The notes below the pieces were generated by a model. It had not been told where the DNA came from and made no database searches. It saw only the letters and a list, made by a program, of their open reading frames with translations. From NCBI GenBank assembly GCA_014816205.1, contig GCA_014816205.1_4096.1: a stretch of DNA of 28,420 nucleotides, one strand, 5' to 3'. The position numbers were made by a program, and so were the translations under genes. Below, one piece after another: positions 15,163 through 27,957 of the stretch. This DNA comes from a phage. Within the stretch, counting starts at the first letter, position 1. Every line of letters begins with the position of its first letter.

Positions 15163-15297
15163 TTATTTTTTAGCTTTAAGTACTGCGGCCTTTCGTGTCA
15201 TTCCTTGTTTGATGTACTCCTTTACTTTCGCTTTTTTAGCGTTTACCTTGTCTGCTTTCGTTTTAGGAGTACTGTAAATTATACCGTTAGGATTCAT
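15163..15297 (-). CDS. small Lys-rich protein (44 aa), absent from ORF track
   Basis: Hand translation: MNPNGIIYSTPKTKADKVNAKKAKVKEYIKQGMTRKAAVLKAKK; start overlaps upstream stop. Confidence 0.45.
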   Translation of the reverse strand: MNPNGIIYSTPKTKADKVNAKKAKVKEYIKQGMTRKAAVLKAKK

Positions 15298-15387
15298 TTA
15301 AATCACCATAAAGAATAGATAGGTTACTAACAATGCCGCGATCAATGCACCGACCAGGGCCGAACTGTAATAAGCCAATGATTTCAT
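15298..15387 (-). CDS. small hydrophobic peptide (29 aa), absent from ORF track
   Basis: Hand translation: MKSLAYYSSALVGALIAALLVTYLFFMVI; ATGA overlap with 15384.. gene. Confidence 0.4.
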   Translation of the reverse strand: MKSLAYYSSALVGALIAALLVTYLFFMVI

Positions 15388-15536
15388 TTTTTAGCCTGAA
15401 AGTAATGTTTAATTTGTGCGGCGGTCAGTGCACAATTACGCAGGAAGTTTTCTGTATAACTGCGTCGAGTACTGAAAGAAAATTGACCTTTGCCGTTACC
15501 GATAGTAACATCAAACCGAGCATTATATTGTTTCAT
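15384..15536 (-). CDS. hypothetical protein (50 aa)
   Basis: ORF track 15384..15566 trimmed to ATG at 15536; track N-terminus is the translated leader hairpin. Confidence 0.5.
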   Translation of the reverse strand: MKQYNARFDVTIGNGKGQFSFSTRRSYTENFLRNCALTAAQIKHYFQAKK

Positions 15537-15617
15537 TTTGTTTCTCCTGATAGTGGGGAGAATCATTTCTCCCCTTGATGTAAAACATTATACAGTACTG
15601 AAAACTAATTGCAAGTA
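15537..15617 (-). promoter_or_regulatory. PeSL-like promoter/hairpin cassette
   Basis: RC of ttgcaa 15609-15614 and attata 15587-15592 (16-bp spacer); hairpin ggggagaatcatttctcccc 15555-15574. Confidence 0.6.
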
Positions 15618-15764
15618 TTATTTTTTAGATTTACGCAAACTTTCTACCATCTCAGGAGTAAGGCCCGGCGGGTAGGAAACCACTTCATCAACGAAACGTA
15701 AAGGGAATACCCCAGCGAAAGGTGAACATGCTTTCTTAGTATTACTCTTTTTTGATGCTTTCAT
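15618..15764 (-). CDS. small basic protein (48 aa), absent from ORF track
   Basis: Hand translation: MKASKKSNTKKACSPFAGVFPLRFVDEVVSYPPGLTPEMVESLRKSKK; AAGGA upstream. Confidence 0.45.
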   Translation of the reverse strand: MKASKKSNTKKACSPFAGVFPLRFVDEVVSYPPGLTPEMVESLRKSKK

Positions 15765-15833
15765 TTCATATTCCTTAATTAGTGGGGAGTACTATTTCTC
15801 CCCTTCATGTAAAACATTATACAGTACTGAAAA
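15765..15833 (-). promoter_or_regulatory. PeSL-like promoter/hairpin cassette
   Basis: ggggagtactatttctcccc hairpin; same promoter module as 15537-15617. Confidence 0.55.
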
Positions 15834-16043
15834 CTAATTGCAAGTACTATTTGAAAGTAAATGCTCATACGCTGCATTAACTACATTTTCAATAACCGAC
15901 TGTACAGAAAGATCCCCCACGTCCTGGCTATAGTAGAAATTGCTTACAGTGGTGTCATCGTATGCAAATACTTTACCAGGTACGGCATCAATCACATACA
16001 TATTAACCTTTAAGATGTCGATCTTATCCTGTACAGTAAGCAT
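15834..16043 (-). CDS. hypothetical protein (69 aa)
   Basis: ORF track 15834..16157 trimmed to ATG at 16043; the track N-terminus overlaps a better gene in another frame. Confidence 0.5.
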   Translation of the reverse strand: MLTVQDKIDILKVNMYVIDAVPGKVFAYDDTTVSNFYYSQDVGDLSVQSVIENVVNAAYEHLLSNSTCN

Positions 16044-16044
16044 A

Positions 16045-16215
16045 TTACGCCGCCTTATCAGTACTGGCAACCGGACGGATACGGGCCATTTCCTGGGCTT
16101 GTTCCACACTGTAACGCTCATAAAGGCGGCATTCTTCCGGTGTAGGAACAGCATCAATACGCTTCATCGGTTTAATGATTCTTTCGATCTCATTCAGTAC
16201 TTGATTAACGTTCAT
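16045..16215 (-). CDS. small protein (56 aa), absent from ORF track
   Basis: Hand translation: MNVNQVLNEIERIIKPMKRIDAVPTPEECRLYERYSVEQAQEMARIRPVASTDKAA; GGGGA 7 nt upstream. Confidence 0.45.
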   Translation of the reverse strand: MNVNQVLNEIERIIKPMKRIDAVPTPEECRLYERYSVEQAQEMARIRPVASTDKAA

Positions 16216-16266
16216 GGTATAATCCCCAATATAAGCGGCCTAAATCGACCACTAACGATGATTTGA

Positions 16267-16536
16267 TCAATAGGTGTATGGTTGACGCTCAAACAATGAT
16301 TGCACGTTGTACGCCCCGCTTATGGGCTTCGCTGGCAAATCAATTTTATATTGTTCACGCTTAAAGATAATAAAACGGCAATTGTTTTTAACATCAAAAT
16401 TGATTGAACGTTCCAGGAGTTTACCATCGTGCACAAATACAAGATAACCGCTTGGTACTTGTTTTGTAGAACTGGTTGCAACCATAGACCGACGAACATG
16501 TGTACCTGCATCGATTAAAGTACTGATATTTTTCAT
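16267..16536 (-). CDS. hypothetical protein (89 aa)
   Basis: ORF track; AAGAGGAAAG upstream. Confidence 0.6.
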   Translation of the reverse strand: MKNISTLIDAGTHVRRSMVATSSTKQVPSGYLVFVHDGKLLERSINFDVKNNCRFIIFKREQYKIDLPAKPISGAYNVQSLFERQPYTY

Positions 16537-16616
16537 TTTACTTTCCTCTTAAGTTGATTTAATTTCTTTCCCCTATGCAGACACTATATCAAAGTATCTG
16601 CATAAAGTAAAGCTAA

Positions 16617-16940
16617 TTAAAGATCTTTTTTGCGTTTAACATTCTGTACAGTACAATGCAACGGGATATTAAGATCATTGCACAAACGATAGAGGGAGGT
16701 TTCAACAGTATCAAGCCCGTCTACTGATTCCTTTAAGAGTGATACCGCCGTTTGTTGATATGCATCCTCATAGCCATAAGTAAATGATTCAACCGCCAGA
16801 TCATTCAAGCCGTTATCCAGTTCAACGCTTACATGACAAGAATGATAAGTATTGCCATATGAATCAGTCCAACGTTTACCGTCAACATTGATTGCATGGA
16901 TTGCAGCCAGGGAAACGGTGTTGATGATAGTTTTAGCCAT
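16617..16940 (-). CDS. hypothetical protein (107 aa); paralog of 10200..10523
   Basis: ORF track; shared RWTDSYGNTYHSC and FTYGY and KRKKD motifs. Confidence 0.6.
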   Translation of the reverse strand: MAKTIINTVSLAAIHAINVDGKRWTDSYGNTYHSCHVSVELDNGLNDLAVESFTYGYEDAYQQTAVSLLKESVDGLDTVETSLYRLCNDLNIPLHCTVQNVKRKKDL

Positions 16941-16968
16941 TTTAGTATTCCTTAAATTAATATGTGTC

Positions 16969-17042
16969 GTCTTGATAAAATCTATTATGCCAGTACTATC
17001 AAACTATGTCAATAGTACTGTGATAATATTTTTACTTACTTT
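16969..17042 (-). repeat. about 74-bp direct repeat, copy A (promoter module)
   Basis: Identical to 17263-17336; contains RC of TTGACA and CATAAT. Confidence 0.65.
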
Positions 17043-17244
17043 CTTTTGATGCTTTATATGTTGCCACTGCCATAACCACATCAGCACGAACAAAGTTTTT
17101 AACCGTGTCAGTGTAGTAATTGATTGCATCGTCTACATCTGTGAACGTCCGATACATACCGCACCAAGATACTTTATAACCTTCTTTCACTTGTTCAAGT
17201 TTAACCAGTGTTTTGTTTACTTTAATTTTAGTAATGATAGCCAT
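17032..17244 (-). CDS. hypothetical protein (70 aa)
   Basis: ORF track. Confidence 0.6.
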   Translation of the reverse strand: MAIITKIKVNKTLVKLEQVKEGYKVSWCGMYRTFTDVDDAINYYTDTVKNFVRADVVMAVATYKASKESK

Positions 17245-17262
17245 TATTGTTTCCTCTTAGTT

Positions 17263-17336
17263 GTCTTGATAAAATCTATTATGCCAGTACTATCAAACTA
17301 TGTCAATAGTACTGTGATAATATTTTTACTTACTTT
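17263..17336 (-). repeat. about 74-bp direct repeat, copy B
   Basis: Identical to 16969-17042; the two copies flank the 17032..17244 gene. Confidence 0.65.
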
Positions 17337-17469
17337 TTTCTTTCTTAATTGCTTCCACCTGGTCGGCCCATTCTTTACCCCATACTTGTAAATTATAATG
17401 GTACTGGCAAAGAGCAACGCCCCGCTTTAAACCAGTAATAGATTTTGTACCACATTGACAAGTTTTCAT
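17326..17469 (-). CDS. small Cys-rich protein (47 aa), possible zinc ribbon; absent from ORF track
   Basis: Hand translation: MKTCQCGTKSITGLKRGVALCQYHYNLQVWGKEWADQVEAIKKEKSK; preceded by cassette 17470-17554. Confidence 0.45.
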   Translation of the reverse strand: MKTCQCGTKSITGLKRGVALCQYHYNLQVWGKEWADQVEAIKKEKSK

Positions 17470-17554
17470 ATTAGTTTCCTTGTAGTGGGGAGAATCATTT
17501 CTCCCCTTGATGTAATGTATTATACTTTATTCGATTTACTTTGCAAGTACTTTT
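17470..17554 (-). promoter_or_regulatory. PeSL-like promoter/hairpin cassette
   Basis: ggggagaatcatttctcccc hairpin; RC of TATAAT and TTGCAA. Confidence 0.55.
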
Positions 17555-17782
17555 TTAATTTAATTCATCCAGGCAAAGGATACGTTCCACACCAAGATCC
17601 GTTAAACTAATGGTCGGTACTTGATAGGTTTCAATGTATGCTACACTTGCCCACTGACCGAACTCATTAACGGCCCAGGTATTCATTGCATTTTGCAATT
17701 CCACACCTTCCTTGTTGGTAATGACTGCAACTACTTGTTCGTTGCCAGTAGTACCAGATACGCGAGTAATGATAATAGCCAT
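17555..17782 (-). CDS. hypothetical protein (75 aa)
   Basis: ORF track. Confidence 0.6.
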   Translation of the reverse strand: MAIIITRVSGTTGNEQVVAVITNKEGVELQNAMNTWAVNEFGQWASVAYIETYQVPTISLTDLGVERILCLDELN

Positions 17783-18231
17783 TTTTTAATTCCTATTCAG
17801 TAGTTGATGTATGTATTATGTCAGTACTTAAAACTATTGTCAAACTATTTTTTAAAATTTATCAATGATTGATGCCGTTTCATTGATAGTCTTGCCGTGT
17901 TTTGCACACGCGATAACTGCTTTAAATTCCTTTGATGACCAATCTTTCTTGCTGCATACTGACATTACTTGTAACGTGAAACAATCCAGTTCATAAGTAT
18001 TCATCTTTAAATCCTCAGTTAGTTAAGGTGTCTCGCCTTGATGTAATTAATTATACGCTAATCTCTTAATCGTGCAAGTACTTTTTATTACTTTTTGTAA
18101 AATACTTTAAACACTCTCAATCGCTTTCTAACGTCCTTAACGCCACCAGCTAGGGCAATGTATCAGATAATCAGTTTAATGCGTTAGAATCGATTCTAGG
18201 CGGTGCTAGTGGACTGGAATACTATAGACAC

Positions 18232-18258
18232 AAAAAAGCCCACTGTTTAAGGTGGGCT
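18232..18258 (-). terminator. rho-independent terminator
   Basis: Hairpin agcccactgtttaaggtgggct followed on minus strand by TTTTTT; directly downstream of 18280.. gene. Confidence 0.65.
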
Positions 18259-18279
18259 AGTGATTCAGTACTTTAATTG

Positions 18280-18762
18280 TTATGCTTCAACTTTGCGATG
18301 AGCTTCGATCCATTCCTCGCGAGTCAATCCGCTTTCTTTGATAGCATCCAGTACTACCGCAATGCAGTTACCGCGTACAGGAATCATATGTTCTTCCCCG
18401 TTATCAAGTACTACAGTAACACGTTCTTGAATCCATTTTTTAGGTTTAGATTCTGGCTTATCTTCACCATACTTAACCGCCAGGGCTTTATGTGCCATTT
18501 CTACAACTACTTCCAGATCCAATCCAGACACCGCCGCCTGGATACTTTCGATTGTTGCTTGCAGTTCGGCTTCACGGGCTTTTTTCTGTTCTTCCAGTTC
18601 TGCTACCTTTTTGGCTTGCAGTTCTTTAGCTTCACTGTACGCAATGTTAAAATTGTTGCGTACTGCTTTCATGGTATCGTTATCCAGGTCAGCCAGCAAT
18701 TCAGCAGCAATAACAGTATCGTTTGAAATCAGTGCTTTCAGGAATGATTTTACATTAGCCAT
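18280..18762 (-). CDS. hypothetical protein (160 aa) with Glu/Lys/Ala-rich central segment
   Basis: ORF track 18280..18777 trimmed to ATG at 18762 with GAGGA 9 nt upstream. Confidence 0.6.
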   Translation of the reverse strand: MANVKSFLKALISNDTVIAAELLADLDNDTMKAVRNNFNIAYSEAKELQAKKVAELEEQKKAREAELQATIESIQAAVSGLDLEVVVEMAHKALAVKYGEDKPESKPKKWIQERVTVVLDNGEEHMIPVRGNCIAVVLDAIKESGLTREEWIEAHRKVEA

Positions 18763-18816
18763 TTTATAAATCCTCAATTAAAGTTTAGTTTACGTTTATT
18801 AGTGTATCAAAGTTTT

Positions 18817-18878
18817 ATCGACGTGTCCAGTTTTTCGTTCGACTTACTGGCGGTCTACTTAGTGCTCCCCGTCTTGAT
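18817..18878 (-). promoter_or_regulatory. structured leader element, copy 3 (long 5' UTR)
   Basis: Minus strand begins ACATCAAGACGGGGA and contains TAAGTAGACC, as in copies at 11226 and 22074; promoter TTGACA/TAGAAAT at 18886-18914. Confidence 0.4.
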
Positions 18879-18965
18879 GTAATACATTCTACGCCTTTTT
18901 GTGGTAATGTCAACTACTATTTTAAAACTATTTTTAAAGTATGCAGTACTACGATAATACAAAAA

Positions 18966-18992
18966 CAAAAAAGCCCACTGTATAAGTGGGCT
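18966..18992 (-). terminator. rho-independent terminator (duplicate of the 18232 module)
   Basis: Hairpin agcccactgtataagtgggct followed on minus strand by T-run; downstream of 19010.. gene. Confidence 0.65.
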
Positions 18993-19009
18993 AGTGATTC
19001 AGTACTATA

Positions 19010-19309
19010 TTATAAACAGTTAATTACTCCGGTGTGCGTTACTTTCTCAGTATCCATAACAGTGACCGAACCGCGTTTAGTACTTGCATCGTAATAAATT
19101 GTCGTGCTACCTTTTTCGTCTTCTTCATGGAACGGCCCGTTTTTAAATGCTTCTGGCTGGATCTCTAAATCCTTTAAAACAATCTCGCCAGTACTTTCAT
19201 TGGTCATCGCTACAGTGCACTGAATGAATTTTTCACTACTTACATCTAACGACGCATTAACAGCGAAAGAGGAAACAGATAAAGCCAGGGCGATGATTGC
19301 AATTTTCAT
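19010..19309 (-). CDS. secreted or periplasmic small protein with N-terminal signal peptide (99 aa)
   Basis: ORF track; MKIAIIALALSVSSFAVNA has a hydrophobic core and an AxA-type cleavage site. Confidence 0.6.
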   Translation of the reverse strand: MKIAIIALALSVSSFAVNASLDVSSEKFIQCTVAMTNESTGEIVLKDLEIQPEAFKNGPFHEEDEKGSTTIYYDASTKRGSVTVMDTEKVTHTGVINCL

Positions 19310-19393
19310 TTGATTATCCTTAGTTACCAGGGGGAACCGCTCCCCCTTGCGATGTAAAATATTATACAGTACTAAAAACTATTATCAAGTACT
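19310..19393 (-). promoter_or_regulatory. PeSL-like promoter/hairpin cassette
   Basis: gggggaaccgctccccc hairpin; RC of TATAAT. Confidence 0.5.
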
Positions 19394-19630
19394 TTATGAT
19401 TTTTTATAAAACATTTCGGCAGTGATATTTTTACCCGTTGGTTGTACTTTATCCAGAATTTTTTGATGCCCTGGCCGTCCAAATGAATATGATCCGTAAA
19501 CCGTAAACCAGTAGTTACCCTCAGTGTTTACATGTACAGCACAATAGGGAACGCCCCGCGATTCATCACTAGTAAAGTGTGATACCGTTCCCGTTACATT
19601 CGCAGACGTTGATTTGATTTGTTCGAGCAT
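19394..19630 (-). CDS. hypothetical protein (78 aa)
   Basis: ORF track. Confidence 0.6.
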   Translation of the reverse strand: MLEQIKSTSANVTGTVSHFTSDESRGVPYCAVHVNTEGNYWFTVYGSYSFGRPGHQKILDKVQPTGKNITAEMFYKKS

Positions 19631-19738
19631 TTTCTTATTCCTTAGTTACCAGGGGAACCGCTCCCCCTATGCAAAACATTATACGCGTTTAAAAACTAAT
19701 TGCAAGTATTTTAATAAAAAGTATTTGAAAAATAATTG

Positions 19739-19767
19739 TTGACAACTGCATCCAGTACTGGCATAAT
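19739..19767 (+). promoter_or_regulatory. plus-strand sigma70-like promoter
   Basis: ttgaca 19739-19744, 17-bp spacer, cataat 19762-19767; no plus-strand ORF follows. Confidence 0.45.
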
Positions 19768-19773
19768 TACTAC

Positions 19774-19880
19774 ATAAAGACGATACAGTCACTAACCCAC
19801 AGGGTGCATAGATCCGTCTATTAAATGATTCAGTACTGAAAAAGTAACGGGGAGTTATTATCTCCCCGCGTTGTTATTTG
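19774..19880 (+). ncRNA. candidate small non-coding RNA (about 100 nt)
   Basis: Runs from the 19739 promoter to hairpin cggggagttattatctccccg (19848-19868) plus U-rich tail; contains the 19-nt motif; only a 4-codon ORF. Confidence 0.3.
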
Positions 19881-20095
19881 GTAAGGTATAAACAGAAGTC
19901 ACCTTTATTTGCTACGCCGCCAGTGTAACGCGATGAATAGTTAGAAATATCTTGTACTTCTGCTATTACCAGTGTATCATCATTCATTTCGTCGCAGAAG
20001 CAAACGGCTGGATCTTTTACGCCGATATTGTCGGCATGTTCCCGCATAGATTTAACCAGTGCTTCCAGTTGAGAAAGAGTAGTGATATTAGCCAT
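19874..20095 (-). CDS. hypothetical protein (73 aa)
   Basis: ORF track 19874..20125 trimmed to ATG at 20095. Confidence 0.55.
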   Translation of the reverse strand: MANITTLSQLEALVKSMREHADNIGVKDPAVCFCDEMNDDTLVIAEVQDISNYSSRYTGGVANKGDFCLYLTK

Positions 20096-20179
20096 TGTAT
20101 TTTCCTCATTACCAGGGAGAACCATTTCTCCCCTCTATGTAAACTATTATACAGTACTAAAAACTAATTGCAAGTACTT
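20096..20179 (-). promoter_or_regulatory. PeSL-like promoter/hairpin cassette
   Basis: gggagaaccatttctccc hairpin; RC of TATAAT and TTGCAA. Confidence 0.5.
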
Positions 20180-20365
20180 TTAATTAAATTTTGTACCGTC
20201 CAGTAATGAAGCATTACGCATCATTCGCCCAGCACGATCCCAGCTAGTAGGATCGGGAATCCCTTGCAACTCGTTAGGGGAGATCTCAATCTTGATCCCT
20301 ACATTGATAACAGTCATTCCAGCCTTTGCAGCTTGCTCTCGGATAACCTCAGATAATGTTGTCAT
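20180..20365 (-). CDS. hypothetical protein (61 aa)
   Basis: ORF track 20180..20407 trimmed to ATG at 20365 with AGGAG 8 nt upstream; track M1 is a TTG. Confidence 0.55.
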   Translation of the reverse strand: MTTLSEVIREQAAKAGMTVINVGIKIEISPNELQGIPDPTSWDRAGRMMRNASLLDGTKFN

Positions 20366-20426
20366 GATTAAAGCTCCTGTATCGCTTATAATGTTTGTCA
20401 GTACCAATATAAAGTATTATACGCCT

Positions 20427-20639
20427 TTATTGCTTAGTGTCCAGTACTTTTAAAACATAATCAAAGACACCACGCACATCATTGATCATCGCCTGGCGGT
20501 TAGCAGGTAACGCATCAGGATCGCCACTATCCCAGGCATTAATAAAGCCACCTAAATCATGGAATACTTTATTCTGTAAGCCGATTAACTGTAATTCTTT
20601 TTCTTCAAGCTCTTTGATGCGGTCGATTAAATCACTCAT
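20427..20639 (-). CDS. hypothetical protein (70 aa)
   Basis: ORF track 20427..20675 trimmed to ATG at 20639 with GAGGATTATCTAATG context. Confidence 0.55.
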   Translation of the reverse strand: MSDLIDRIKELEEKELQLIGLQNKVFHDLGGFINAWDSGDPDALPANRQAMINDVRGVFDYVLKVLDTKQ

Positions 20640-20656
20640 TAGATAATCCTCAGTAC

Positions 20657-20941
20657 TTAACTGTAAGATCCGCAACGGTCGCAGTAGTGCCCGTCCTCGT
20701 CATCGTCAACGAATTGACCGACGAAATGATCTACTTTCGCTTTGAGGTTATTATAATCGTTTTCTACTTCCTTTAAACGTTCCTGGTAGTATTCCAGTGC
20801 CTTAAGATACGCCGCCTCAGTCGTTTTCTCACGCATAGCTAAATTCATTCCACGCGTTTCATCAAATAGCCAATAACCATCGGTGCATTGACTGATAGAT
20901 AATGACTTGCTTAGTACTGTATAGTTAATTACTTTACCCAT
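20657..20941 (-). CDS. hypothetical protein (94 aa)
   Basis: ORF track; same GAGGATTATCTAATG start context as 20427 gene; C-terminal HYCDRCG. Confidence 0.6.
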   Translation of the reverse strand: MGKVINYTVLSKSLSISQCTDGYWLFDETRGMNLAMREKTTEAAYLKALEYYQERLKEVENDYNNLKAKVDHFVGQFVDDDEDGHYCDRCGSYS

Positions 20942-21033
20942 TAGATAATCCTCAGTAAAGGCGGGAACTATTCCCCGCCTCGATATAAAGTATTATACGT
21001 TAATCTAACTACAATGCAAGTACTTTTTAAATT
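20942..21033 (-). promoter_or_regulatory. PeSL-like promoter/hairpin cassette
   Basis: gcgggaactattccccgc hairpin; RC of TATAAT and TTGCAT. Confidence 0.5.
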
Positions 21034-21300
21034 TTATAATCCTTTTACTGCATCAGGTGCGACTACGCCATCAATGTATTGAACATCGTTTTCCACTTCA
21101 CGGGCGGCATCATTCAGCAGATCAAAATTAAATTCCATTTCTTCCAGATCATCGAAATCAGGCTCATAACCATTAATTGTTGAATAAGTCCAAGTACCTT
21201 TTTCATAAGTTACGACACTTACATCAGGGAAGAAATCTTGCACATGATCCATCGCATCCCGAACCAATTGATGTGCAGTTGTGATATTTAAAGTTTTCAT
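21034..21300 (-). CDS. hypothetical acidic protein (88 aa)
   Basis: ORF track. Confidence 0.6.
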   Translation of the reverse strand: MKTLNITTAHQLVRDAMDHVQDFFPDVSVVTYEKGTWTYSTINGYEPDFDDLEEMEFNFDLLNDAAREVENDVQYIDGVVAPDAVKGL

Positions 21301-21393
21301 TTTGTTGCCCTTTTAGTGTGAGCGGGGAACCATTCCCCGCCTCGATATAAAGTATTATACGCTTTTAAACTTAGTTTGCAAGTACTTTTTGAA
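21301..21393 (-). promoter_or_regulatory. PeSL-like promoter/hairpin cassette
   Basis: gcggggaaccattccccgc hairpin; RC of TATAAT and TTGCAA. Confidence 0.5.
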
Positions 21394-22005
21394 TTAATAT
21401 TCGATTGATTCTACTACGCCATCAATAACATTGAATTGATACTCGTTACCCTCAATCAGTGCTACGATGTTTTCAGTAGTGAATTGATCCTCATATGCAT
21501 TCTCTAAATCACGGTACAACTTGCGTGACAATTCACGAATAGTTTCAGTGAGTAGTTCCTCAAGCTCATTAACTAACGTTTCTTGTTTTGCGGTTAAATC
21601 AGTGTAAGCCGATTCAATGTACCCGCTTACAGTGTTCTCATGCGAGTAGTGAGAGTGAGAACGCTTTACACTCATCGCCAAATCATCTTCATTCAGCAGG
21701 TGACGGATTGAGCGATACTTAGTTAATGCTCTTACCTTGCGTAAAAACTTCACTGCGTCAACGTGGTCAGTACTGATTGATGCACCGTCACCCTGGGACC
21801 AAAAACCACTGAATTGTATTTCAGCGTCATTAATGCCATATTCCGGTAGTACTGTTTCTTTATAGTATTCAATTTCACTTTCAGAAAAATAATCATCGTT
21901 TAAGTTTTTTTCACGTTCCCGAACCAGTTCGATAGCTGACGTTTTTTGTTCTGCGTTCAATTCAGAAAAAGCCATAACATAAGTAGTAGTAGTGATAGTT
22001 TTCAT
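21394..22005 (-). CDS. hypothetical protein (203 aa)
   Basis: ORF track; GAGGG 8 nt upstream; preceded by an unusually long multi-promoter leader. Confidence 0.65.
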   Translation of the reverse strand: MKTITTTTYVMAFSELNAEQKTSAIELVREREKNLNDDYFSESEIEYYKETVLPEYGINDAEIQFSGFWSQGDGASISTDHVDAVKFLRKVRALTKYRSIRHLLNEDDLAMSVKRSHSHYSHENTVSGYIESAYTDLTAKQETLVNELEELLTETIRELSRKLYRDLENAYEDQFTTENIVALIEGNEYQFNVIDGVVESIEY

Positions 22006-22073
22006 TTTGTAACCCTCATTCAGTAGTTGATGTAAGTATTATACGCTTTTAAAAACAATTGTCAAACTATTTT

Positions 22074-22147
22074 ATCAGGGGAGTTTTTCGTGTGCCTTAC
22101 TCCTGGGCTACTTAACGGGCAGTTACTTATTTCGTCCCCCGTCCTGA
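22074..22147 (-). promoter_or_regulatory. structured leader element, copy 2
   Basis: About 85% identical to 11226-11298, same closing stem ATCAGG/CCTGAT; again between two tandem promoters. Confidence 0.4.
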
Positions 22148-22230
22148 TGTAAAACATTATACGCCTTTAAACATAGTTTGCAAGTACTTTTTATCAAATA
22201 GTTTTCAGTACTGAATAGTAAAAAAAAGTA

Positions 22231-22259
22231 TTGACAGCACTATCCAGTACTGGTATAAT
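22231..22259 (+). promoter_or_regulatory. plus-strand sigma70-like promoter
   Basis: ttgaca 22231-22236, 17-bp spacer, tataat 22254-22259; two copies of the 19-nt motif downstream in opposite orientation. Confidence 0.45.
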
Positions 22260-22382
22260 ATACCCCATGACAACAGCTAACCCACCGGGTGCACAATTGT
22301 AACTGTACTAAACTACTTTTTCTATAGATACACTCCCGCACCCTATGGGCTACGGCTTATCTGCCAATGAATACATTATGCC

Positions 22383-22413
22383 AGTATTGACAAAATAAGT
22401 CAATACTGGCAAT
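22383..22413. other. perfect 12-bp-stem hairpin
   Basis: gccagtattgac aaaataa gtcaatactggc; stem contains TTGACT, which with CATAAT 17 bp away forms a minus-strand promoter-like site. Confidence 0.5.
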
Positions 22414-22433
22414 TGTAAAGATTTGTAAACTGA

Positions 22434-22664
22434 TTATACTGCAATCGCGTCCAGGCTATAATAATAATAAGTGCCGTATTGGTGTACTTTATTACCTTTT
22501 ATTTCAGTACTGAATGAATCCGAACGATTGGCATATGATGTTAATTTAAAGTACTTTGTTTTGCTGATACGTTGCCATACACCGCAGATCCGCTGTAAGT
22601 AAGTAGTTTTATTAGTGGTAGTATCTTTTACGGTTTTAACTTCAGTCATATACATATTGGTCAT
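22434..22664 (-). CDS. hypothetical protein (76 aa)
   Basis: ORF track; AAGGAG upstream. Confidence 0.6.
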   Translation of the reverse strand: MTNMYMTEVKTVKDTTTNKTTYLQRICGVWQRISKTKYFKLTSYANRSDSFSTEIKGNKVHQYGTYYYYSLDAIAV

Positions 22665-22750
22665 TTTTTTACTCCTTGCTTTAGTGGGGAACTATTCCCC
22701 ACCTGATATAAAGTATTATACGCGTTTAAACTTAGTTTGCAAGTACTTTT
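22665..22750 (-). promoter_or_regulatory. PeSL-like promoter/hairpin cassette
   Basis: ggggaactattcccc hairpin; RC of TATAAT and TTGCAA. Confidence 0.5.
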
Positions 22751-23014
22751 TTATAGTACTGCTATCTTTTTAGTACGGTACACGGTAACACGATTCCCCT
22801 TACGGTCGAGCTTTATTTCTACCACTCGACGCGATACACTAGCAGGACTTTTTAAAGCTGATAGCCAGTACTGTAATGATCTGGCTGTACTACGCTTTAC
22901 AATGGCCCAACGTTTACCACTTGCCGATCCCGCTCCCATATCTTTAAACGTTGCCCCGTCCTGGCGTGCGGCGATCCGAGCTTGTTCACGCGTCGCAAAA
23001 TACTTAATATTCAT
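22751..23014 (-). CDS. hypothetical protein (87 aa); short paralog of 9709..10104
   Basis: ORF track; shared FATREQARIAARQDGATFKDMG and DRKGNRVTVY motifs; AAGGG upstream. Confidence 0.6.
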   Translation of the reverse strand: MNIKYFATREQARIAARQDGATFKDMGAGSASGKRWAIVKRSTARSLQYWLSALKSPASVSRRVVEIKLDRKGNRVTVYRTKKIAVL

Positions 23015-23050
23015 GCTGTTACCCTTATCGTTGGTGTATGAATAAAATCC

Positions 23051-23073
23051 TATTATAAAGTACTATCACCGTG
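23051..23073. promoter_or_regulatory. palindromic operator-like site in promoter region
   Basis: Perfect palindrome agtactatcaccgtgatagtact just upstream of TATAAT; approximate coordinates. Confidence 0.35.
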
Positions 23074-23095
23074 ATAGTACTTTAAATCTATTCTA

Positions 23096-23335
23096 TTACA
23101 TTCCAACCATTGCAGCACGGATCGCCGTAGTGCTATACTTAAAGCCGTCCGGCGTTTTATCTTGTCCAGTCTGTTCTAAAAATAGCATCATATGACGGGC
23201 CGCATCATTGCGATTAGTGTTAGCGGCAATAAAGTCCTGGGCCAACCGGTATAATGATTCATCGTTATTAATCCAAAGGCTTACATTCCATTGAGTTTTG
23301 TTAGCGTGACCTAAGAACATTTTTGATTTAGCCAT
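23096..23335 (-). CDS. hypothetical protein (79 aa)
   Basis: ORF track. Confidence 0.6.
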   Translation of the reverse strand: MAKSKMFLGHANKTQWNVSLWINNDESLYRLAQDFIAANTNRNDAARHMMLFLEQTGQDKTPDGFKYSTTAIRAAMVGM

Positions 23336-23427
23336 TTTTTAATCCTCTTATATAGTGGGGAACTATTCCCCACCTGATGTAAAACATTATACGCTTTTAA
23401 ACTTAGTTTGCAAGTACTTTATTAAAC
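23336..23427 (-). promoter_or_regulatory. PeSL-like promoter/hairpin cassette
   Basis: ggggaactattcccc hairpin; near-duplicate of 22665-22750. Confidence 0.5.
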
Positions 23428-23790
23428 TTATTCGTAAATTTTGCCACTATCAGCCCATACCAGGAAACGAGGCATATTATCCCATGCATCTTGCTTTAAA
23501 TTTAAACCGTGTAATACTTCTGTACTTTCCATTCCTGGTACTGGTTTACTATACACCGCGAACAATTCACCCATATACTGATACGCCATCGTCAAATCAC
23601 TGGCGATCATCTTATGGATCATCGCATCAAGCATCACGGTAGCGGCGTATTGTTCACGCTTAAGCGGTAACATTGCAATAAGTTCCCGATAAGCTGAAAT
23701 GTGAATTTTTACCGTTTCTGCCGGAAGATCTTTCATCTCGTCGCGGAAGTTAACCAGGTTAGCAATAATTTTATTGATTTGAGTCGCCAT
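23428..23790 (-). CDS. hypothetical protein (120 aa)
   Basis: ORF track 23428..23847 trimmed to ATG at 23790; track N-terminus is the translated hairpin. Confidence 0.6.
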   Translation of the reverse strand: MATQINKIIANLVNFRDEMKDLPAETVKIHISAYRELIAMLPLKREQYAATVMLDAMIHKMIASDLTMAYQYMGELFAVYSKPVPGMESTEVLHGLNLKQDAWDNMPRFLVWADSGKIYE

Positions 23791-23880
23791 CGTTTTAATC
23801 TCTCTTAATGTGTAGCGGGAAGTGTTCCCGCTCTCGATGTAAAACATTATACGCTTTTAAACATAGTTTGCAAGTACTTT
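23791..23880 (-). promoter_or_regulatory. PeSL-like promoter/hairpin cassette
   Basis: gcgggaagtgttcccgc hairpin; RC of TATAAT and TTGCAA. Confidence 0.5.
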
Positions 23881-24128
23881 CTACATGTACTTTTAAAATA
23901 GTTTTCTTTCTATATAGGAGTACTATTATTCAGTACTACCAACAACCAGGGGAACTATCTTTCAGTACTGAATCAACCAAATCACTACTACACCCCATAA
24001 AACGGCCTCAGACGCATTCTAACGCATTAATACACCTAAGCTATACATTTGCACCGCCACCAGCTAACCAGGGCTTTACAGACCGTTTAAACGCGTTAAA
24101 TTATTTTCAATTATTTTGTTTTTAGCTA

Positions 24129-24156
24129 TTGACTCAGTACTAAAAAAGCGTATAAT
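24129..24156 (+). promoter_or_regulatory. plus-strand sigma70-like promoter
   Basis: ttgact 24129-24134, 16-bp spacer, tataat 24151-24156. Confidence 0.45.
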
Positions 24157-24343
24157 TACTACATAGACGCGAGAAAGCGGATACCCCAGGGGGTGCCGAG
24201 ATCCGTCCAAAATTCATAAAATTTAAAAAGAATACACTCCCGCACCCTAGCAGGTCAACGCACTTTCTCAGTACTGAATTATAGTACCATAGTACGGCCC
24301 AGGATAGCAAGCAAATTAATTAAAACTTTTTTCATCCAGGGTA

Positions 24344-24371
24344 TTGCTTTATTTTTCCAGTACTGTATAAT
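24344..24371 (+). promoter_or_regulatory. plus-strand sigma70-like promoter (extended -10)
   Basis: ttgctt 24344-24349, 16-bp spacer, tgtataat ending 24371. Confidence 0.45.
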
Positions 24372-24468
24372 AGTTCCATCAAGTCGAGAAAGACTCCAGC
24401 CCACCGGGTGCATAGTTACGCCCAAAATTCAGTACTGAAAAAATTTTTAAAAATATCCGTCCAGGCCG

Positions 24469-24497
24469 TTGACATTGCCCCCAGTTTATAAGATAAT
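24469..24497 (+). promoter_or_regulatory. plus-strand sigma70-like promoter
   Basis: ttgaca 24469-24474, 17-bp spacer, gataat 24492-24497; points into the repeat array. Confidence 0.4.
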
Positions 24498-24594
24498 GAT
24501 TCCAGATTCAGAAAAATCTAACTCCAGATACTGCGGGGAAACTATCCCCACGCGGTAGGGGAACTATTGGAAAAAACAAAATAAAATTTTGATT

Positions 24595-24697
24595 TAGCCG
24601 TCTATACTTCCAGACGTGTAACCATCTAGCCGTTTAGCCGTCCAAACGTCTAGCCATCCAGAAATCTAGCCGTTTAGCCGTCTAGATGGATAGCCAT
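24595..24697. repeat. iteron-like array of 7 TAGCC(G/A)T units
   Basis: TAGCC at 24595, 24627, 24635, 24651, 24667, 24675, 24691; spacings all multiples of 8 bp. Confidence 0.55.
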
Positions 24698-24896
24698 CTT
24701 TACTTCCAGACTTCTGGAGGGCTAGACATATCTACGTCCAAAATCCATCCAGGGTAACTACGCCCAAAATCCGTCAGTACTATACCATAGATCTATCTTT
24801 TGAAAGGGAGTATTCAGTACTGCCATCATAGCCCTCACTATGTTACCCTAGGAGGATGAAGACTATCATGTAGTACTGAATACTGTTAGAGGGAAC

Positions 24897-24916
24897 CCAC
24901 CAGCACAAGCTGGTGG
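24897..24916. other. hairpin whose two arms are the Chi octamer and its complement
   Basis: ccaccagc acaa gctggtgg, a perfect 8-bp stem. Confidence 0.6.
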
Positions 24917-25100
24917 CATAATGATTTAGATTAAAATCAGTACTGACACCATTCTGTTAATATCAGTACTGTTATTACGATTTTCATATGAGGTTCAAAA
25001 AGATGTACCACCACAGGAGGAACTATCTTTTCTGTACTGTCTCACGACAGGAGGTAGAGTAAATGAATTGTTCGCAGCAACTCATCACCCTATGTAGAAC

Positions 25101-25128
25101 ATTATACAGTACTGAATCATAATGTCAA
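25101..25128 (-). promoter_or_regulatory. minus-strand sigma70-like promoter facing the repeat array
   Basis: RC of tgtcaa 25123-25128 and attata 25101-25106 with 16-bp spacer; no gene downstream for over 1 kb. Confidence 0.45.
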
Positions 25129-25746
25129 TAGCTTTCTTTCATTATTCAGTACTGATATTCTTGAGAACTACCCGACTACAAACATCATTATATCCCACAA
25201 ATCATAAACGTCCCAACGTAAATTTCAACTTTCGAAGATCCAACTTTTATTTCATAGGTACTCCAAAATTTTTAGGATCGAGATTTAGGATGGAGTACTA
25301 ACCAACTTTTTGCTGGAGCCTCAAGGGGTAATGGAATTTTACCCCGAAGGGTAAAGGGGTAATTGAAATTAAGGTGAAAGTAATAATTCAGTACTAATCA
25401 TTGCGTGATTACTTTTGATTACATTTGATGTAATTTGCAAAATGGAAAAGGAGCTTGGAAACTACAAAGTACGGCAGACTTCCTCTGCCTACTTAGTGAC
25501 ATATCAGTACTGCTACGTTCTTGATTAAACGTGAACATTCCTGTACTCTAGTACTCACCACTGATCACTACAGTGATTATAAATGATTACTTAAATGTTT
25601 ATATATGATTACTTATGACTACCTATGATTACGGGGTTTAGCCTGGGGAGAATCCTAGTGATCGCATTTGTCCAGGCTGAATTTTAACAATTCGCCTGTA
25701 CATAAAGGTTGTTCACTAGGAGCTTCCCCTGTCTACTTGTGTTTAA

Positions 25747-25938
25747 TTACTTCCTATATATAAGCATTAAGATATAGTAGTACTGATTATACTGTACATT
25801 CTCTTTAATATTATAAGGGTCTATAGCAATCTCGGTACATCTGTTAAATGCATATCTATTAAATGCCAGTGGAATTATAGATCTAATCCATACTTGTTCA
25901 TTTTCTTTTAGTTTACTTATATAGAAGTTTTTATACAT
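25747..25938 (-). CDS. small protein, tandem paralog family 2
   Basis: ORF track; N-terminus MYKNFYISKL, C-terminus LMLIYRK. Confidence 0.5.
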   Translation of the reverse strand: MYKNFYISKLKENEQVWIRSIIPLAFNRYAFNRCTEIAIDPYNIKENVQYNQYYYILMLIYRK

Positions 25939-25953
25939 AGTATTCTCTATTAA

Positions 25954-26136
25954 TTAATATGATAGTACTAGTGTTAGTACTGAGCACAATTTTTCTTTAT
26001 AGTTCTTAGGGTATATAGAATCTTTTATGCACTCATTGAAGTGCCATAGGTATAATCTTGGGTCGCATTCTTTATATATTCTTACGGGGACGAATGTTAG
26101 TTTTCGTATATAGAATTCTTTATGTTCTTTATTCAT
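25954..26136 (-). CDS. small protein, paralog family 2 (divergent)
   Basis: ORF track; KEFYIRKL near N-terminus. Confidence 0.45.
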   Translation of the reverse strand: MNKEHKEFYIRKLTFVPVRIYKECDPRLYLWHFNECIKDSIYPKNYKEKLCSVLTLVLSY

Positions 26137-26141
26137 ATTAG

Positions 26142-26327
26142 TTAGTGTCTGTATATAAGTAATAGTAAGAATACGTACTGCACATCTTCATCTTTAGTAT
26201 TGAGTACTGTACGTATTGCGTCATTAAACAAGAATATAGTACTTGGGTCATGAAAATTTAAAGGGGTTCTGGGTACGGCATGTTTGTAGTTCCCGTTAAC
26301 AAATTGTGTGTAGTATTCTCTATGCAT
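26142..26327 (-). CDS. small protein, paralog family 2
   Basis: ORF track; MHREYYTQFV ... LLLLIYRH. Confidence 0.5.
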   Translation of the reverse strand: MHREYYTQFVNGNYKHAVPRTPLNFHDPSTIFLFNDAIRTVLNTKDEDVQYVFLLLLIYRH

Positions 26328-26328
26328 A

Positions 26329-26514
26329 TTAGTACCTATATATTAGGGCGAGAATGTAGTACAATTCATATGGAATGTAATTTGGGGTGATCGCACACTG
26401 TGTATGGTAAATGAATTGTTCGGTATTTTTCTTATCCTTGATATCTATTGGGATTTGTGGTATAAGCATTTGGGAGTTTAGATCGAGATGGCTTAAGTAG
26501 AATTCTTTATGCAT
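26329..26514 (-). CDS. small protein, paralog family 2
   Basis: ORF track; MHKEFYLSHL ... LALIYRY. Confidence 0.5.
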   Translation of the reverse strand: MHKEFYLSHLDLNSQMLIPQIPIDIKDKKNTEQFIYHTQCAITPNYIPYELYYILALIYRY

Positions 26515-26523
26515 ATTGTTCTC

Positions 26524-26712
26524 TTAGAATACGAAAGCTAGGTACAGGGTATGATACAGTACTTGATTATAGTTGTAATAATTTATCACGCATTTAGTGC
26601 ACGTAATGAAGTAGTCTTTTTTGTAGTTTATTTCTATACCGCTAGGTTCATCTTCTAACAGATTACCTTGAAGGTGCGGAGGTAAATCTTTTATGTAGTA
26701 TTCTTTATGCAT
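26524..26712 (-). CDS. small protein, paralog family 2
   Basis: ORF track 26524..26757 trimmed to ATG at 26712 (MHKEYYIKDL); close paralog of 27093 gene. Confidence 0.5.
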   Translation of the reverse strand: MHKEYYIKDLPPHLQGNLLEDEPSGIEINYKKDYFITCTKCVINYYNYNQVLYHTLYLAFVF

Positions 26713-26713
26713 G

Positions 26714-26896
26714 TTAGTACCTGAATATAAGTAGGATAGTGTTATATAGCTGGTCATAACTACTACTATTTTCTATACTTCGTTCTATGCAGTTATTGAA
26801 TCCCAGTACTGCCAAATCGTTATCCATAGGGACTTTATATCTGGCGTAGTGTTCAAAAATGCTGGGGAGAAATTGTGTGTAGTATTCTTTGTGCAT
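26714..26896 (-). CDS. small protein, paralog family 2
   Basis: ORF track; MHKEYYTQFL ... ILLIFRY. Confidence 0.5.
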   Translation of the reverse strand: MHKEYYTQFLPSIFEHYARYKVPMDNDLAVLGFNNCIERSIENSSSYDQLYNTILLIFRY

Positions 26897-26897
26897 A

Positions 26898-27083
26898 TTA
26901 GTACCTATATATTAGTAAAAGGATGTGATACAGTACTCGATTATAGTCGTCAATATATATCGAGGATTTAGTGCACTGAATGAAGTAGTCTTTTTCGTAG
27001 TTTTTTTCTATACCCAATGGTTCTGTTGGTACAAGGTGTTGGAGATACATTGGGAGTTTCTCTATGTAGTATTCTTTGTACAT
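26898..27083 (-). CDS. small protein, paralog family 2
   Basis: ORF track; MYKEYYIEKL ... LLLIYRY. Confidence 0.5.
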   Translation of the reverse strand: MYKEYYIEKLPMYLQHLVPTEPLGIEKNYEKDYFIQCTKSSIYIDDYNRVLYHILLLIYRY

Positions 27084-27092
27084 ATATTATCC

Positions 27093-27293
27093 TTAGTACT
27101 GGAACGCAAGGTACAGGGTGTGGTACAGTTGTACTTGATAATTGTTTTCATTAGCTTCTTCATTAAGTACTTGTTCAGTACATGTACGGAAGTAATCAGC
27201 TTCATATATACAGTCAATACCGCGAGGTTCATCTTCTAATAGATTTCCTTGTAGAAACTTTGGTAGTTCTTTTATGTAGAATTCTTTATACAT
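27093..27293 (-). CDS. small protein, paralog family 2
   Basis: ORF track 27093..27356 trimmed to ATG at 27293 (MYKEFYIKEL). Confidence 0.5.
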   Translation of the reverse strand: MYKEFYIKELPKFLQGNLLEDEPRGIDCIYEADYFRTCTEQVLNEEANENNYQVQLYHTLYLAFQY

Positions 27294-27957
27294 AGTTTGT
27301 AATATACGTAATGAGGTGATGCATTTTCTTATCAGTACTGATAATGTCCTGTACATGTTTTGTCAGATTGTACGCGTTTTTATAGAGTACTGGATTATCG
27401 ATTACAGTACTGTACATGAATAGTTCTTCCTCGGATAATTCTTTGCCTTGTAATTCTTTGAGGAATTGTAGTACTGTATCAGTTTCTTCTGTACGTTGTG
27501 CTTGCCAGAAGTGCATATTCTCGTGTACTTTTTCTGCATCAGTAGAGTATATGCCACCCATTTGGAATTGTGCTGTATTGACATCGTGGGAGGTGTTACA
27601 ATTCCCGAAGAAGTATGTATTCCCGAAGTATAGCATTAAAGTGCACGGGGTATTATCCAACTGCATATTGATGATGAAGGATGCGTTCTTTAGTACCTTT
27701 GTGCTCGTATTAGTACTCAATACTTTTAAATCAGTATTATAGATATTCATATAATGAACAGCTATATTATTTTTCTTCATGTACAATTCAAGGTTCTTTG
27801 ATACGTTAACTCCATTTGTACTGGATTTTTCCTTTTTGTTTCGTTTCTTTAGTACATTCGGGTGATACGTATATGCAGATGTAACTGATTCTGCCTGAAT
27901 ACTATTGAGGTACTTAAAGTGCTTAAGGTATTGTTTGCTGTGTGCATTAAGTTTCAT
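27286..27957 (-). CDS. hypothetical Asn/Lys-rich protein (223 aa)
   Basis: ORF track; longest ORF in the window; embedded in the family-2 array. Confidence 0.5.
   Translation of the reverse strand: MKLNAHSKQYLKHFKYLNSIQAESVTSAYTYHPNVLKKRNKKEKSSTNGVNVSKNLELYMKKNNIAVHYMNIYNTDLKVLSTNTSTKVLKNASFIINMQLDNTPCTLMLYFGNTYFFGNCNTSHDVNTAQFQMGGIYSTDAEKVHENMHFWQAQRTEETDTVLQFLKELQGKELSEEELFMYSTVIDNPVLYKNAYNLTKHVQDIISTDKKMHHLITYITNYV

Follow-up and report, generated by a model that had tools for sequence, protein, structure and literature searches.

A conserved non-coding region of an Asteriusvirus jumbo coliphage spans the inner edge of the terminal repeat, contains a genome end, and carries an array of met-box-like sites

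In phage T5, Repeat Region 3 is an untranslated, repeat-rich segment of ~1.2 kb that lies mostly inside the left terminal repeat, overruns it by 270 bp, and carries the injection-stop signal (10.1101/866236). In PA5oct, a related jumbo phage, two loci of the direct terminal repeat (DTR) that lack open reading frames (ORFs) are highly transcribed throughout infection, and its non-coding RNAs have no similarity to any GenBank sequence but MIJ3 (PMC7318152). Oriented clusters of Chi sites at genome ends have been described for Chi-rich lambdoid phages, and the terminal repeats of P1 are joined by host RecA and RecBCD (PMC12315714). Here, we describe a stretch of phage DNA of 28,420 nucleotides (GenBank assembly GCA_014816205.1, contig GCA_014816205.1_4096.1; hereafter, the window) and, within it, a region at positions 23848–25746 that is devoid of credible ORFs (hereafter, the gap). 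An earlier note on this sequence had read the gap as a replication origin with iterons or, alternatively, as a packaging or partition site.

The closest analogue of the gap is Repeat Region 3 of T5. Both are untranslated, are dense in direct and inverted repeats and palindromes, and occupy the inner end of a long terminal repeat, which they overrun by ~250–270 bp. They differ in that the T5 region carries DnaA boxes, paired within inverted repeats, whereas the gap carries 13 met boxes (Fur boxes in relatives) and no DnaA box. Furthermore, T5 belongs to a lineage unrelated to the T4-like jumbo myovirus considered here. The two are likened by description. The same holds for PA5oct, which shares the presence of ORF-free loci in a jumbo-phage DTR; transcription was measured there and is inferred here. 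The region is not described in the published Asteriusvirus (fEgEco12; PMC13070987) and CBB papers, neither of which contains the terms ‘non-coding’ or ‘origin of replication’, and the fEgEco12 paper makes no mention of ‘intergenic’ or ‘promoter’. Collectively, our observations make it reasonably probable that the gap is a conserved, cis-acting, non-coding end region of a ~21-kb DTR with several jobs: terminus formation, early transcription, display of a host-repressor array, and end protection or recombination.

The ORF list of the window contains no ORF of at least 60 aa that lies wholly inside the gap on either strand. The sole ORF that reaches into it is a 105-aa plus-strand frame (23808–24125) that we judged not credible, and inspection of the 27 frames of at least 20 aa in the gap yielded none that was credible, leading us to reject a small-ORF reading. 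The homologous stretch is likewise empty in the curated annotations of G17, phAPEC6, and PBECO4. The ORF list, the small-frame check, and the three curated annotations thus agree with the earlier claim of ~1.9 kb without a credible ORF. A scan of the window for tRNA and tmRNA genes gave no match, Rfam 15 gave none in the whole window at the gathering threshold, and a permissive Rfam search of 23800–25800 returned matches at chance level only (E of at least 0.065). Among five Asteriusviruses, the fraction of invariant positions is 0.8–1.0 in the gap vs. 0.68–0.86 in the adjacent gene. The first annotated gene lies only 1.3–1.8 kb from the end in each cross-genus relative compared. A search with 24140–24780 against 5,426 E. 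coli genomes detected no similarity, indicating that the elements therein were not copied from the host.

23848–25746 (no strand): ORF-free region, consisting of 1,646 bp in the DTR and 253 bp of unique DNA, with conservation above that of the neighboring gene.

The gap is 92–96% identical to the Asteriusvirus jumbo coliphages PBECO4, 121Q, phAPEC6, and G17, and by this similarity the window derives from an Asteriusvirus jumbo coliphage of the PBECO4/121Q/G17 group. Several Asteriusvirus records are 20 kb longer than the rest because both DTR copies are included. The linear G17 record starts at the equivalent of window position 4443 and ends at that of 25493, with no difference between its two copies of 20,668 bp. 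These two positions also bound, to the base, the records of E9.1 and CRJP21, whose deposited orientation is the reverse, and the record of fEgEco12 ends at 25493. Four independent linear records therefore end at 25493, and three of them (G17, E9.1, and CRJP21) also end at 4443. A repeat of 20,993 bp is reported for fEgEco12 from PhageTerm, along with restriction digests reported to confirm the linear arrangement (PMC13070987), and the repeat of G17 was inferred from doubled coverage (PMC6563267). Since the linear records of relatives end there, we take the window to contain one whole DTR and the gap to comprise its last 1,646 bp and the first 253 bp of unique DNA. By this comparison, the gap is the inner, non-coding end of the DTR and contains the right end of the virion genome.

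4443–25493 (no strand): complete DTR of 21,051 bp, set by the ends of the G17, E9.1, and CRJP21 records and by the right end of fEgEco12.
25477–25498 (plus strand): terminus motif GACTT-N12, cut, TAGTG, with the right end between 25493 and 25494, set by the ends of relatives’ records.
25406–25432 (plus strand): TGATTAC repeats with 10-bp phasing, ~60–90 bp inside the terminus; invariant fraction 0.98.
25574–25632 (plus strand): second cluster, of TGATTAC/TGACTAC, with 10-bp phasing, 80–140 bp outside the terminus; 25606–25655 is invariant and the segments on either side are variable.
4433–4447 (no strand): left DTR boundary, GAAGTCGCTA, cut, AGGTT, from comparison with Muenster, Serratia BF, and pEa_SNUABM_12.

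The motif at the right end is not confined to Asteriusvirus. It closes the records of Klebsiella phage Muenster (the terminal repeat of which is a PhageTerm prediction), Serratia phage BF, Erwinia phage pEa_SNUABM_12, and XbC2, and it is found internally in the records of GAP32, Kaldavass, and RaK2. Written as GACTT-N12, cut, TAGYG, it is common to Asteriusvirus and all of these phages. In the 12 nt past the cut, RaK2 (TAGTGGCATATC) and the window (TAGTGACATATC) are equal at 11 of 12 positions. Conservation among the five Asteriusviruses is 0.96–1.00 up to the cut, 0.56 just past it, and 1.00 again at 25606–25632 in the TGATTAC cluster. This heptamer is present in five plus-strand copies within 25406–25632, which correspond to the multiple GATTAC units reported earlier between 25400 and 25640.

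The TGATTAC repeats and the GACTT/TAGTG motif are plausible candidates for recognition by the packaging enzyme. The region resembles the long exact repeats of the T7, T5, and SPO1 type in layout, sharing with them fixed, non-permuted ends, a conserved cut motif, and nearby short phased repeats. The fallback suggestion of a packaging or partition site can accordingly be divided. Its packaging half is supported by the right terminus inside the region, with phased TGATTAC on either side, and its partition half is not, as no ParA, ParB, or ribbon-helix-helix family was detected in the 55 window ORFs scanned.

The left DTR boundary is also alike across genera, reading GAAGTCGCTA then AGG here and AAAGTGCTA then AGCC in Muenster, and the GAAGTCGC of the left boundary is the inverse of GCGACTTC at the right terminus of Serratia BF and pEa_SNUABM_12. 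The G+C content jumps from 0.35 to 0.43 at this boundary (4443–4600), which has short inverted repeats of its own (AAAAAAGTCAAGG/CCTTGACTTTTTT at 4501–4566). A 220-bp gap at 4376–4594 forms a second, smaller non-coding block that holds a genome end.

The most conspicuous repeat in the gap is an array with an 8-bp period. We scored it with the information matrix published by Augustus and Spicer (PMC3228920) and under their acceptance rule, which calls for at least two adjacent 8-bp boxes, none scoring below 25% of the consensus and all together scoring no less than the consensus itself (12.58). The array comprises 13 consecutive in-phase boxes of at least 3.78 bits each, which sum to 97 bits and average 7.46 bits per box. 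No other met-box site is present in the window, and 200 simulated windows never contained more than three boxes. In a positive control of 5.9 kb of E. coli K-12 DNA, only the metJ/metB and metF operators were found, with four boxes each (7.8 and 6.2 bits per box). The array thus matches a MetJ operator by a published sequence criterion.

24596–24699 (no strand): 13 tandem 8-bp met-box-like units of the MetJ operator type, by the PMC3228920 matrix; one more box lies at 24708–24715.
24569–24594 (no strand): A/T-rich tract between the M2 leader (see below) and the array, read from the sequence.

MetJ binds the 8-bp met box AGACGTCT in tandem (PMC3413123). When shifted by one base, the TAGCCGT units of the array read AGCCGTCT, AAACGTCT, AGACGTGT, and so on, all variants of this box. 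The earlier note had seen these units as seven TAGCC(G/A)T copies at 24595–24697 with spacings that are multiples of 8 bp beside an A/T-rich tract. The count and every spacing were recovered here, Tandem Repeats Finder returned periods of 8, 16, and 32, and the tract is present. TAGCCRT occurs 21 times in the window vs. 6.3 expected; the remaining 14 copies are scattered plus-strand TAGCCAT, several of them at the listed start of a minus-strand ORF.

The array and the E. coli MetJ operators are alike in the strict tandem register of their 8-bp units, and each unit of the array passes the matrix threshold, with per-box scores equal to those of metJ/metB and metF. They are unlike in length, with 13–15 boxes in the phage array as compared to four in each scanned control operator. 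Host met operators generally have two to five boxes. Box number differs between phages by whole 8-bp units (12 in G17, 13 in the window, and 15 in fEgEco12), and arrays of 13–14 met boxes were identified in Serratia BF, pEa_SNUABM_12, XbC2, Kaldavass, and GAP32. No phage-encoded MetJ homolog was detected by tblastn against phage records. The three records returned were rejected as apparently host-derived DNA, two being Salmonella contigs annotated MetJ and one a 1.4-kb record with 99% identity to E. coli MetJ.

Four further relatives, Muenster, RaK2, Munch, and fENko-Kae01, are without met boxes and instead carry clusters that match 14–17 of the 19 positions of the Fur consensus GATAATGATAATCATTATC. 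Such matches number 11 in Muenster vs. 0.42 expected and six in Munch vs. 0.22 expected. The main Fur cluster lies 906–805 bp from the terminus in Muenster and ~800–730 bp from it in Munch and fENko-Kae01, and the met array of the window lies 898–794 bp from it; RaK2 carries a matching Fur cluster in a record that does not end at the terminus. The gap of the window itself has no Fur box. The search of related phages for the TAGCCRT array, as the earlier note had asked, thus recovered met-box arrays in Asteriusvirus and in five phages of other genera, along with Fur clusters in four. That MetJ and Fur operator types share one architectural position is the best evidence for recruitment of a host factor by the array, as opposed to a role as an initiator iteron.

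These observations point, tentatively and with somewhat less than even confidence, to an interchangeable host-repressor operator cassette that Rak2-like jumbo phages keep at a fixed ~800–900 bp from one end. Fur boxes would make up the cassette in phages of Klebsiella and Salmonella, and MetJ boxes would do so in those from E. coli, Serratia, Erwinia, and Cronobacter. Such a cassette may capture the host repressor. As a DNA decoy, it could de-repress methionine/S-adenosylmethionine (SAM) or iron-uptake genes while phage DNA multiplies; alternatively, it could make convergent early transcription depend on SAM or iron status. Multicopy Fur sites de-repress host genes, which is the basis of the Fur titration assay; the comparison differs here in that the gap has no Fur box and that titration by phage DNA is our proposal. 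We found no report of such operator arrays in the top-ranked literature on jumbo phages, terminal repeats, and MetJ or Fur sites.

The array is one of several modules in the region that are conserved across genera, as judged from the compared sequences. A sensitive search recovered pieces of the gap in jumbo phages of Klebsiella, Salmonella, Serratia, Erwinia, and Cronobacter and in those labelled Xanthomonas, nearly always within 1–1.5 kb of the record end. When the terminal 1.3–1.9 kb of these genomes are placed side by side, the order is a promoter with element M1, a promoter with the M2 hairpin, the repeat array, ACNCCCAAAAT boxes, a Chi palindrome (in some), a leftward promoter, an inverted repeat round TTTAGGAT, and the cut site. 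A scan of IMG/VR with the neighboring protein returned phage 121Q only; the comparisons were therefore built on GenBank phage records.

Promoter-like matches are not in excess, with 15 at 23000–26500 vs. 13.8 ± 3.5 in shuffled sequences. The promoters named here owe their importance to top scores and cross-genus conservation rather than to how many there are. Counterparts of two of them (P1 and P3) were found in every genus compared.

24129–24156 (plus strand): P1, TTGACT-16-TATAAT, 11/12 consensus positions, with equivalents in Munch, Muenster, Serratia BF, XbC2, and GAP32.
24344–24371 (plus strand): P2, with a weak -35 (TTGCTT), a CAGTACTG spacer, and a perfect TATAAT, read from the sequence; its layout is that of the repeated early promoters of the DTR.
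24469–24497 (plus strand): P3, TTGACA-17-GATAAT, 11/12, its position kept in eight of eight genus-level sequences.
25101–25128 (minus strand): perfect sigma70 consensus TTGACA-16-TATAAT, 12/12, belonging to the family of early promoters repeated in the DTR.
23846–23873 (minus strand): promoter-like TTGCAA-16-TATAAT (10/12) from the promoter scan, immediately preceding the first DTR gene.

Three plus-strand sigma70-like promoters had been proposed for the gap. Those at 24129 and 24469 hold at 11/12, and that at 24344 holds in part, as its -10 is perfect and its -35 matches at only three of six positions, which is why it is absent from the scan list. The opposing minus-strand promoter proposed at 25101–25128 turned out to be a perfect match to the consensus. 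Host sigma70 polymerase probably fires at the conserved promoters, the predicted products of which are the following short structured RNAs.

24163–24275 (plus strand): M1, a conserved leader, putatively transcribed, or candidate small RNA with hairpins CGC-GAGAAA-GCG and ACCC-N4-GGGU and a long-range GGGUGC/GCACCC pairing.
24379–24445 (plus strand): M1', which repeats the M1 leader in shortened form and ends in a ACGCCCAAAATTC box, from repeat and fold analysis.
24504–24580 (plus strand): M2 leader, with a two-part hairpin at 24531–24555 followed by AAUGGAAAAA; RNAalifold consensus -12.6.
24930–25094 (minus strand): predicted structured RNA of ~165 nt from the leftward promoter, ending in a terminator-like 14-bp hairpin (24938–24971) and a U tract.

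The core of M1 (24149–24202) retains 82–91% identity in jumbo phages of Salmonella, Klebsiella, Erwinia, and Serratia and in Xanthomonas-labelled ones, across genera with little other DNA in common. Changes in its stems between genera look compensatory by eye, and its fold z-score is -2.0. For M2, MAFFT mis-registered the outer stem; sequences were therefore aligned by hand and then passed to a scripted RNAalifold run, such that the covariation counts do not come from an unbiased alignment: seven of eight diverse sequences fold to the same two-part hairpin, and six different inner-stem sequences keep pairing. The outer stem includes a U·G pair that would be an A–C mismatch on the opposite strand, a pairing specific to the plus strand, and the z-scores are -3.73 for the plus strand and -2.0 for the minus strand. 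The predicted leftward RNA folds at -48.9 kcal/mol (z = -4.37). Comparison of five phages showed 24956–25055 and 25106–25155 to be invariant, and 25056–25105 to be 0.83 invariant with eight gap columns. Within this RNA (25004–25054, minus strand) are two CCUCCUGU motifs similar to the 16S rRNA anti-Shine-Dalgarno end; pairing with ribosome binding sites would be speculative.

The palindrome CAGTACTG of the P2 spacer occurs 37 times in the window vs. 0.32 expected (e.g., at 7727, 10588, 12167, 14561, 15594, 19368, 20153, and 25108), with none of the 37 left of position 4443; AGTACT occurs 156 times. An early promoter that recurs in nearly identical form, TTGACA-N9-AGTACTGTATAAT-N4-TACAT, has the palindrome in its spacer, and other copies lie against the -35 (AGTACTTGCAA) or within genes. 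The palindrome may be a site for a regulator or have a connection with DNA modification.

Additional short repeats accompany these modules. ACGYCCAAAATYC occurs four times vs. 0.11 expected, all on the plus strand (24203, 24418, 24734, and 24760), and TACTTCCAGAC occurs at 24605 and 24701. These are the four-copy (about 24204, 24418, 24735, and 24761) and two-copy repeats that the earlier note listed, and the GGGGTAA/TTACCCC hairpin that it placed near 25330 is likewise present (25325–25345); the TACTTCCAGAC copies and the hairpin were read from the sequence. The ACGYCCAAAATYC copy in M1 sits where Munch, BF, and Muenster have a Fur box. Comparison of ACGYCCAAAATYC with the consensus sites of PurR, ArgR, MetR, IHF, and TrpR as candidate host factors gave nothing convincing. 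At the place equivalent to that of the two boxes following the array, Serratia BF, Munch, and GAP32 have ACACCCAAAAT.

24734–24772 (plus strand): two ACGYCCAAAATCC boxes, with further copies at 24203 and 24418.
25257–25299 (no strand): inverted repeat GGTACTCC...GGAGTACT round TTTAGGAT repeats, kept in Munch, Serratia BF, and GAP32.
24897–24916 (no strand): Chi/anti-Chi palindrome CCACCAGC-acaa-GCTGGTGG, which holds the only plus-strand Chi of the window.

The Chi octamer GCTGGTGG is present 11 times in the window vs. 0.31 expected (~35-fold). All copies are inside the DTR (5803–24916), with none in the 7.4 kb that flank it. A similar bias is seen in G17, with 10 Chi in the 20.7-kb repeat vs. 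five in 68.6 kb of unique DNA. Ten of the 11 copies are on the minus strand; the plus-strand copy (24909–24916) is 585 bp from the right end. Chi is active on the strand whose 3' end is the DNA end entered by RecBCD (PMC12315714), and by this rule ten Chi face RecBCD entering the left end and one faces RecBCD entering the right end. The palindrome that contains the latter is annotated as an ARNOLD terminator in G17 and is present in Munch and fENko-Kae01 with a different loop. As in Chi-rich lambdoid phages such as LLS, Chi is over-represented, clustered at genome ends, and oriented for entry of RecBCD from the end. Unlike in those phages, it is confined here to the terminal repeat of a jumbo myovirus, and the gap side has a single Chi in a palindrome.

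Other features of the window and its relatives were also noted. Pfam assignments for the small minus-strand ORFs at 4598–28338 cover a toxin domain of ParE type, a zinc finger of the DksA/TraR kind, and a GNAT acetyltransferase, which fit a host-takeover gene set, and the equivalent block is annotated in Muenster with a YeeU-like antitoxin and a sigma-factor-like protein. The terminal region of the ‘Xanthomonas’ phage XbC2 is closely like that of Erwinia phage Kaldavass, with enterobacterial-type met-box arrays, and XbC2 has one GCTGGTGG octamer 223 bp from the record end.

Several observations weigh against the reading of the gap as a multi-functional end region with a host-repressor array. 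Position 3 is C (AGCCGT) in eight of the 13 boxes, and only ~10% of natural half-boxes have that base there (PMC3228920 matrix). The array also has no adjacent methionine gene or overlapping promoter, unlike host operators, and starts ~90 nt downstream of P3. The Chi palindrome is missing from Klebsiella Muenster and Serratia BF, and the Chi module is therefore not universal; moreover, a single Chi faces the right end. Lastly, the covariation of the leader stems comes from eight hand-aligned sequences.

Given this base at position 3 in eight of the boxes, the ligand could be a related ribbon-helix-helix protein from another part of the 350-kb genome. In that case, the array would be a centromere-like site or an operator for that protein, with a role in partition, early-transcription silencing, or packaging recognition, and host MetJ would have no part in it. 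Ribbon-helix-helix proteins such as MetJ, ParG, and CopG typically bind long runs of short tandem repeats (PMC3413123), and the systematic A-to-C change hints at a slightly different specificity. We nonetheless consider this unlikely, given that the 55 window ORFs scanned yielded no ribbon-helix-helix, ParA, or ParB member, that phage records yielded no MetJ homolog, and that textbook Fur boxes at the same position in relatives argue for host factors. It is far less probable still that the gap encodes small proteins that gene callers have overlooked. Some automatic annotations place up to ~10 ‘hypothetical proteins’ under the match, and a 19-codon frame follows a GGAGG motif at 25064 (read from the sequence). 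Against this, the longest frames (59 and 105 aa) are of low complexity or are broken by indels in relatives, the three curated annotations call nothing here, and cross-genus conservation tracks promoters, stems, and binding-site arrays instead of reading frames.

A role as a replication origin, as originally proposed, would have promoter transcripts enter an A/T-rich unwinding element beside iterons in the manner of T4, or, in a variant, recombination-dependent replication start from the repeat ends. Conserved promoters do point at the A/T tract and the repeat array, the Chi-rich DTR could feed recombination-dependent replication, and the GC skew switches sign near 26 kb while the genes stay on one strand. 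This last feature appears to be local. In the 110 of 371 kb of G17 that were analyzed, the skew is negative over the repeat, positive at 20–40 kb, and negative beyond, so that it turns again at 40 kb and the cumulative skew falls below its repeat-edge value by 64 kb; within those 110 kb, the sign change at ~26 kb is not an extremum. The local flip, which could be mistaken for the mark of an origin, is attributable to a run of eight small minus-strand ORFs (60–87 aa, mostly ~61) just outside the repeat at 25747–27356, which has a positive skew (+0.1 to +0.29); the other minus-strand genes of the window are negative. There is no DnaA box (TTWTNCACA) in the gap, and the whole window has four vs. 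4.6 expected. Repeats that match a host MetJ operator and that are swapped for Fur boxes in relatives are hard to square with the iterons of a phage initiator. In T5, the analogous repeat region was deemed an unlikely origin, and origins map near the middle of the genome (10.1101/866236). We conclude that the claim of an origin with iterons is not supported and that an origin of either kind is improbable. A T5-type injection-stop signal would instead have DNA entry paused by host proteins on the array, close to the inner edge of whichever repeat enters first, and would limit expression to repeat genes before phage proteins lift the block. The layout of T5 Repeat Region 3 is matched, down to an overrun of 253 bp here and 270 bp in T5, and as in T5 the region is more conserved than nearby ORFs and has clustered sites for a host DNA-binding protein; the DTR is also packed with small genes behind sigma70 promoters. 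However, the gap has no DnaA boxes, two-step transfer has not been reported in the published Asteriusvirus and CBB genome papers, and MetJ and Fur are soluble proteins and not membrane-bound. Furthermore, entry of the right end first would agree equally well or better with the Chi palindrome and the leftward consensus promoter located near it, and the region would in that case lead entry rather than stop it. An injection-stop signal is, in our estimation, doubtful.

We therefore return to the reading of the gap as an end region with several jobs and outline how it might work. At the terminus, DNA would be cut 12 nt after GACTT and just before TAGTG; the record ends show this position, and we infer the enzyme and the role of the phased TGATTAC repeats. 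In early transcription, P1, P2, and P3 would produce short structured leaders rightward, and the leftward consensus promoter would produce the structured RNA of ~165 nt. Host MetJ–SAM (Fur–Fe in relatives) would coat the array cooperatively, downstream of P3. The coated array may act as a repressor-dependent roadblock between the convergent promoters, or it may act as a decoy that titrates the repressor as phage DNA multiplies, leading to de-repression of methionine/SAM genes (iron-uptake genes in the Fur variants). At the right end, the Chi palindrome could switch RecBCD that enters there from degradation to recombination, and the combination of a single right-facing Chi with ten opposite Chi would favor recombination between the two repeats and help to join them.

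The long terminal repeats of jumbo phages have mostly been reported as a mere length. Here, the inner edge of one such repeat corresponds to a non-coding control region that is deeply conserved and has an exactly placed cut, and GACTT-N12, cut, TAGYG offers a sequence rule by which Rak2-like genomes deposited with arbitrary starts can be oriented. The region also provides a comparative handle on the long-unsolved injection-stop region of T5, where DnaA boxes are clustered in a similar place. The proposed operator cassette, if real, would represent a phage strategy that operates via cis-acting DNA and not via a protein. Arrays ~3 times longer than the two scanned E. coli met operators, together with the exchange of MetJ and Fur sites across genera, suggest that these phages may sense or manipulate the methionine/SAM and iron regulation of their hosts.

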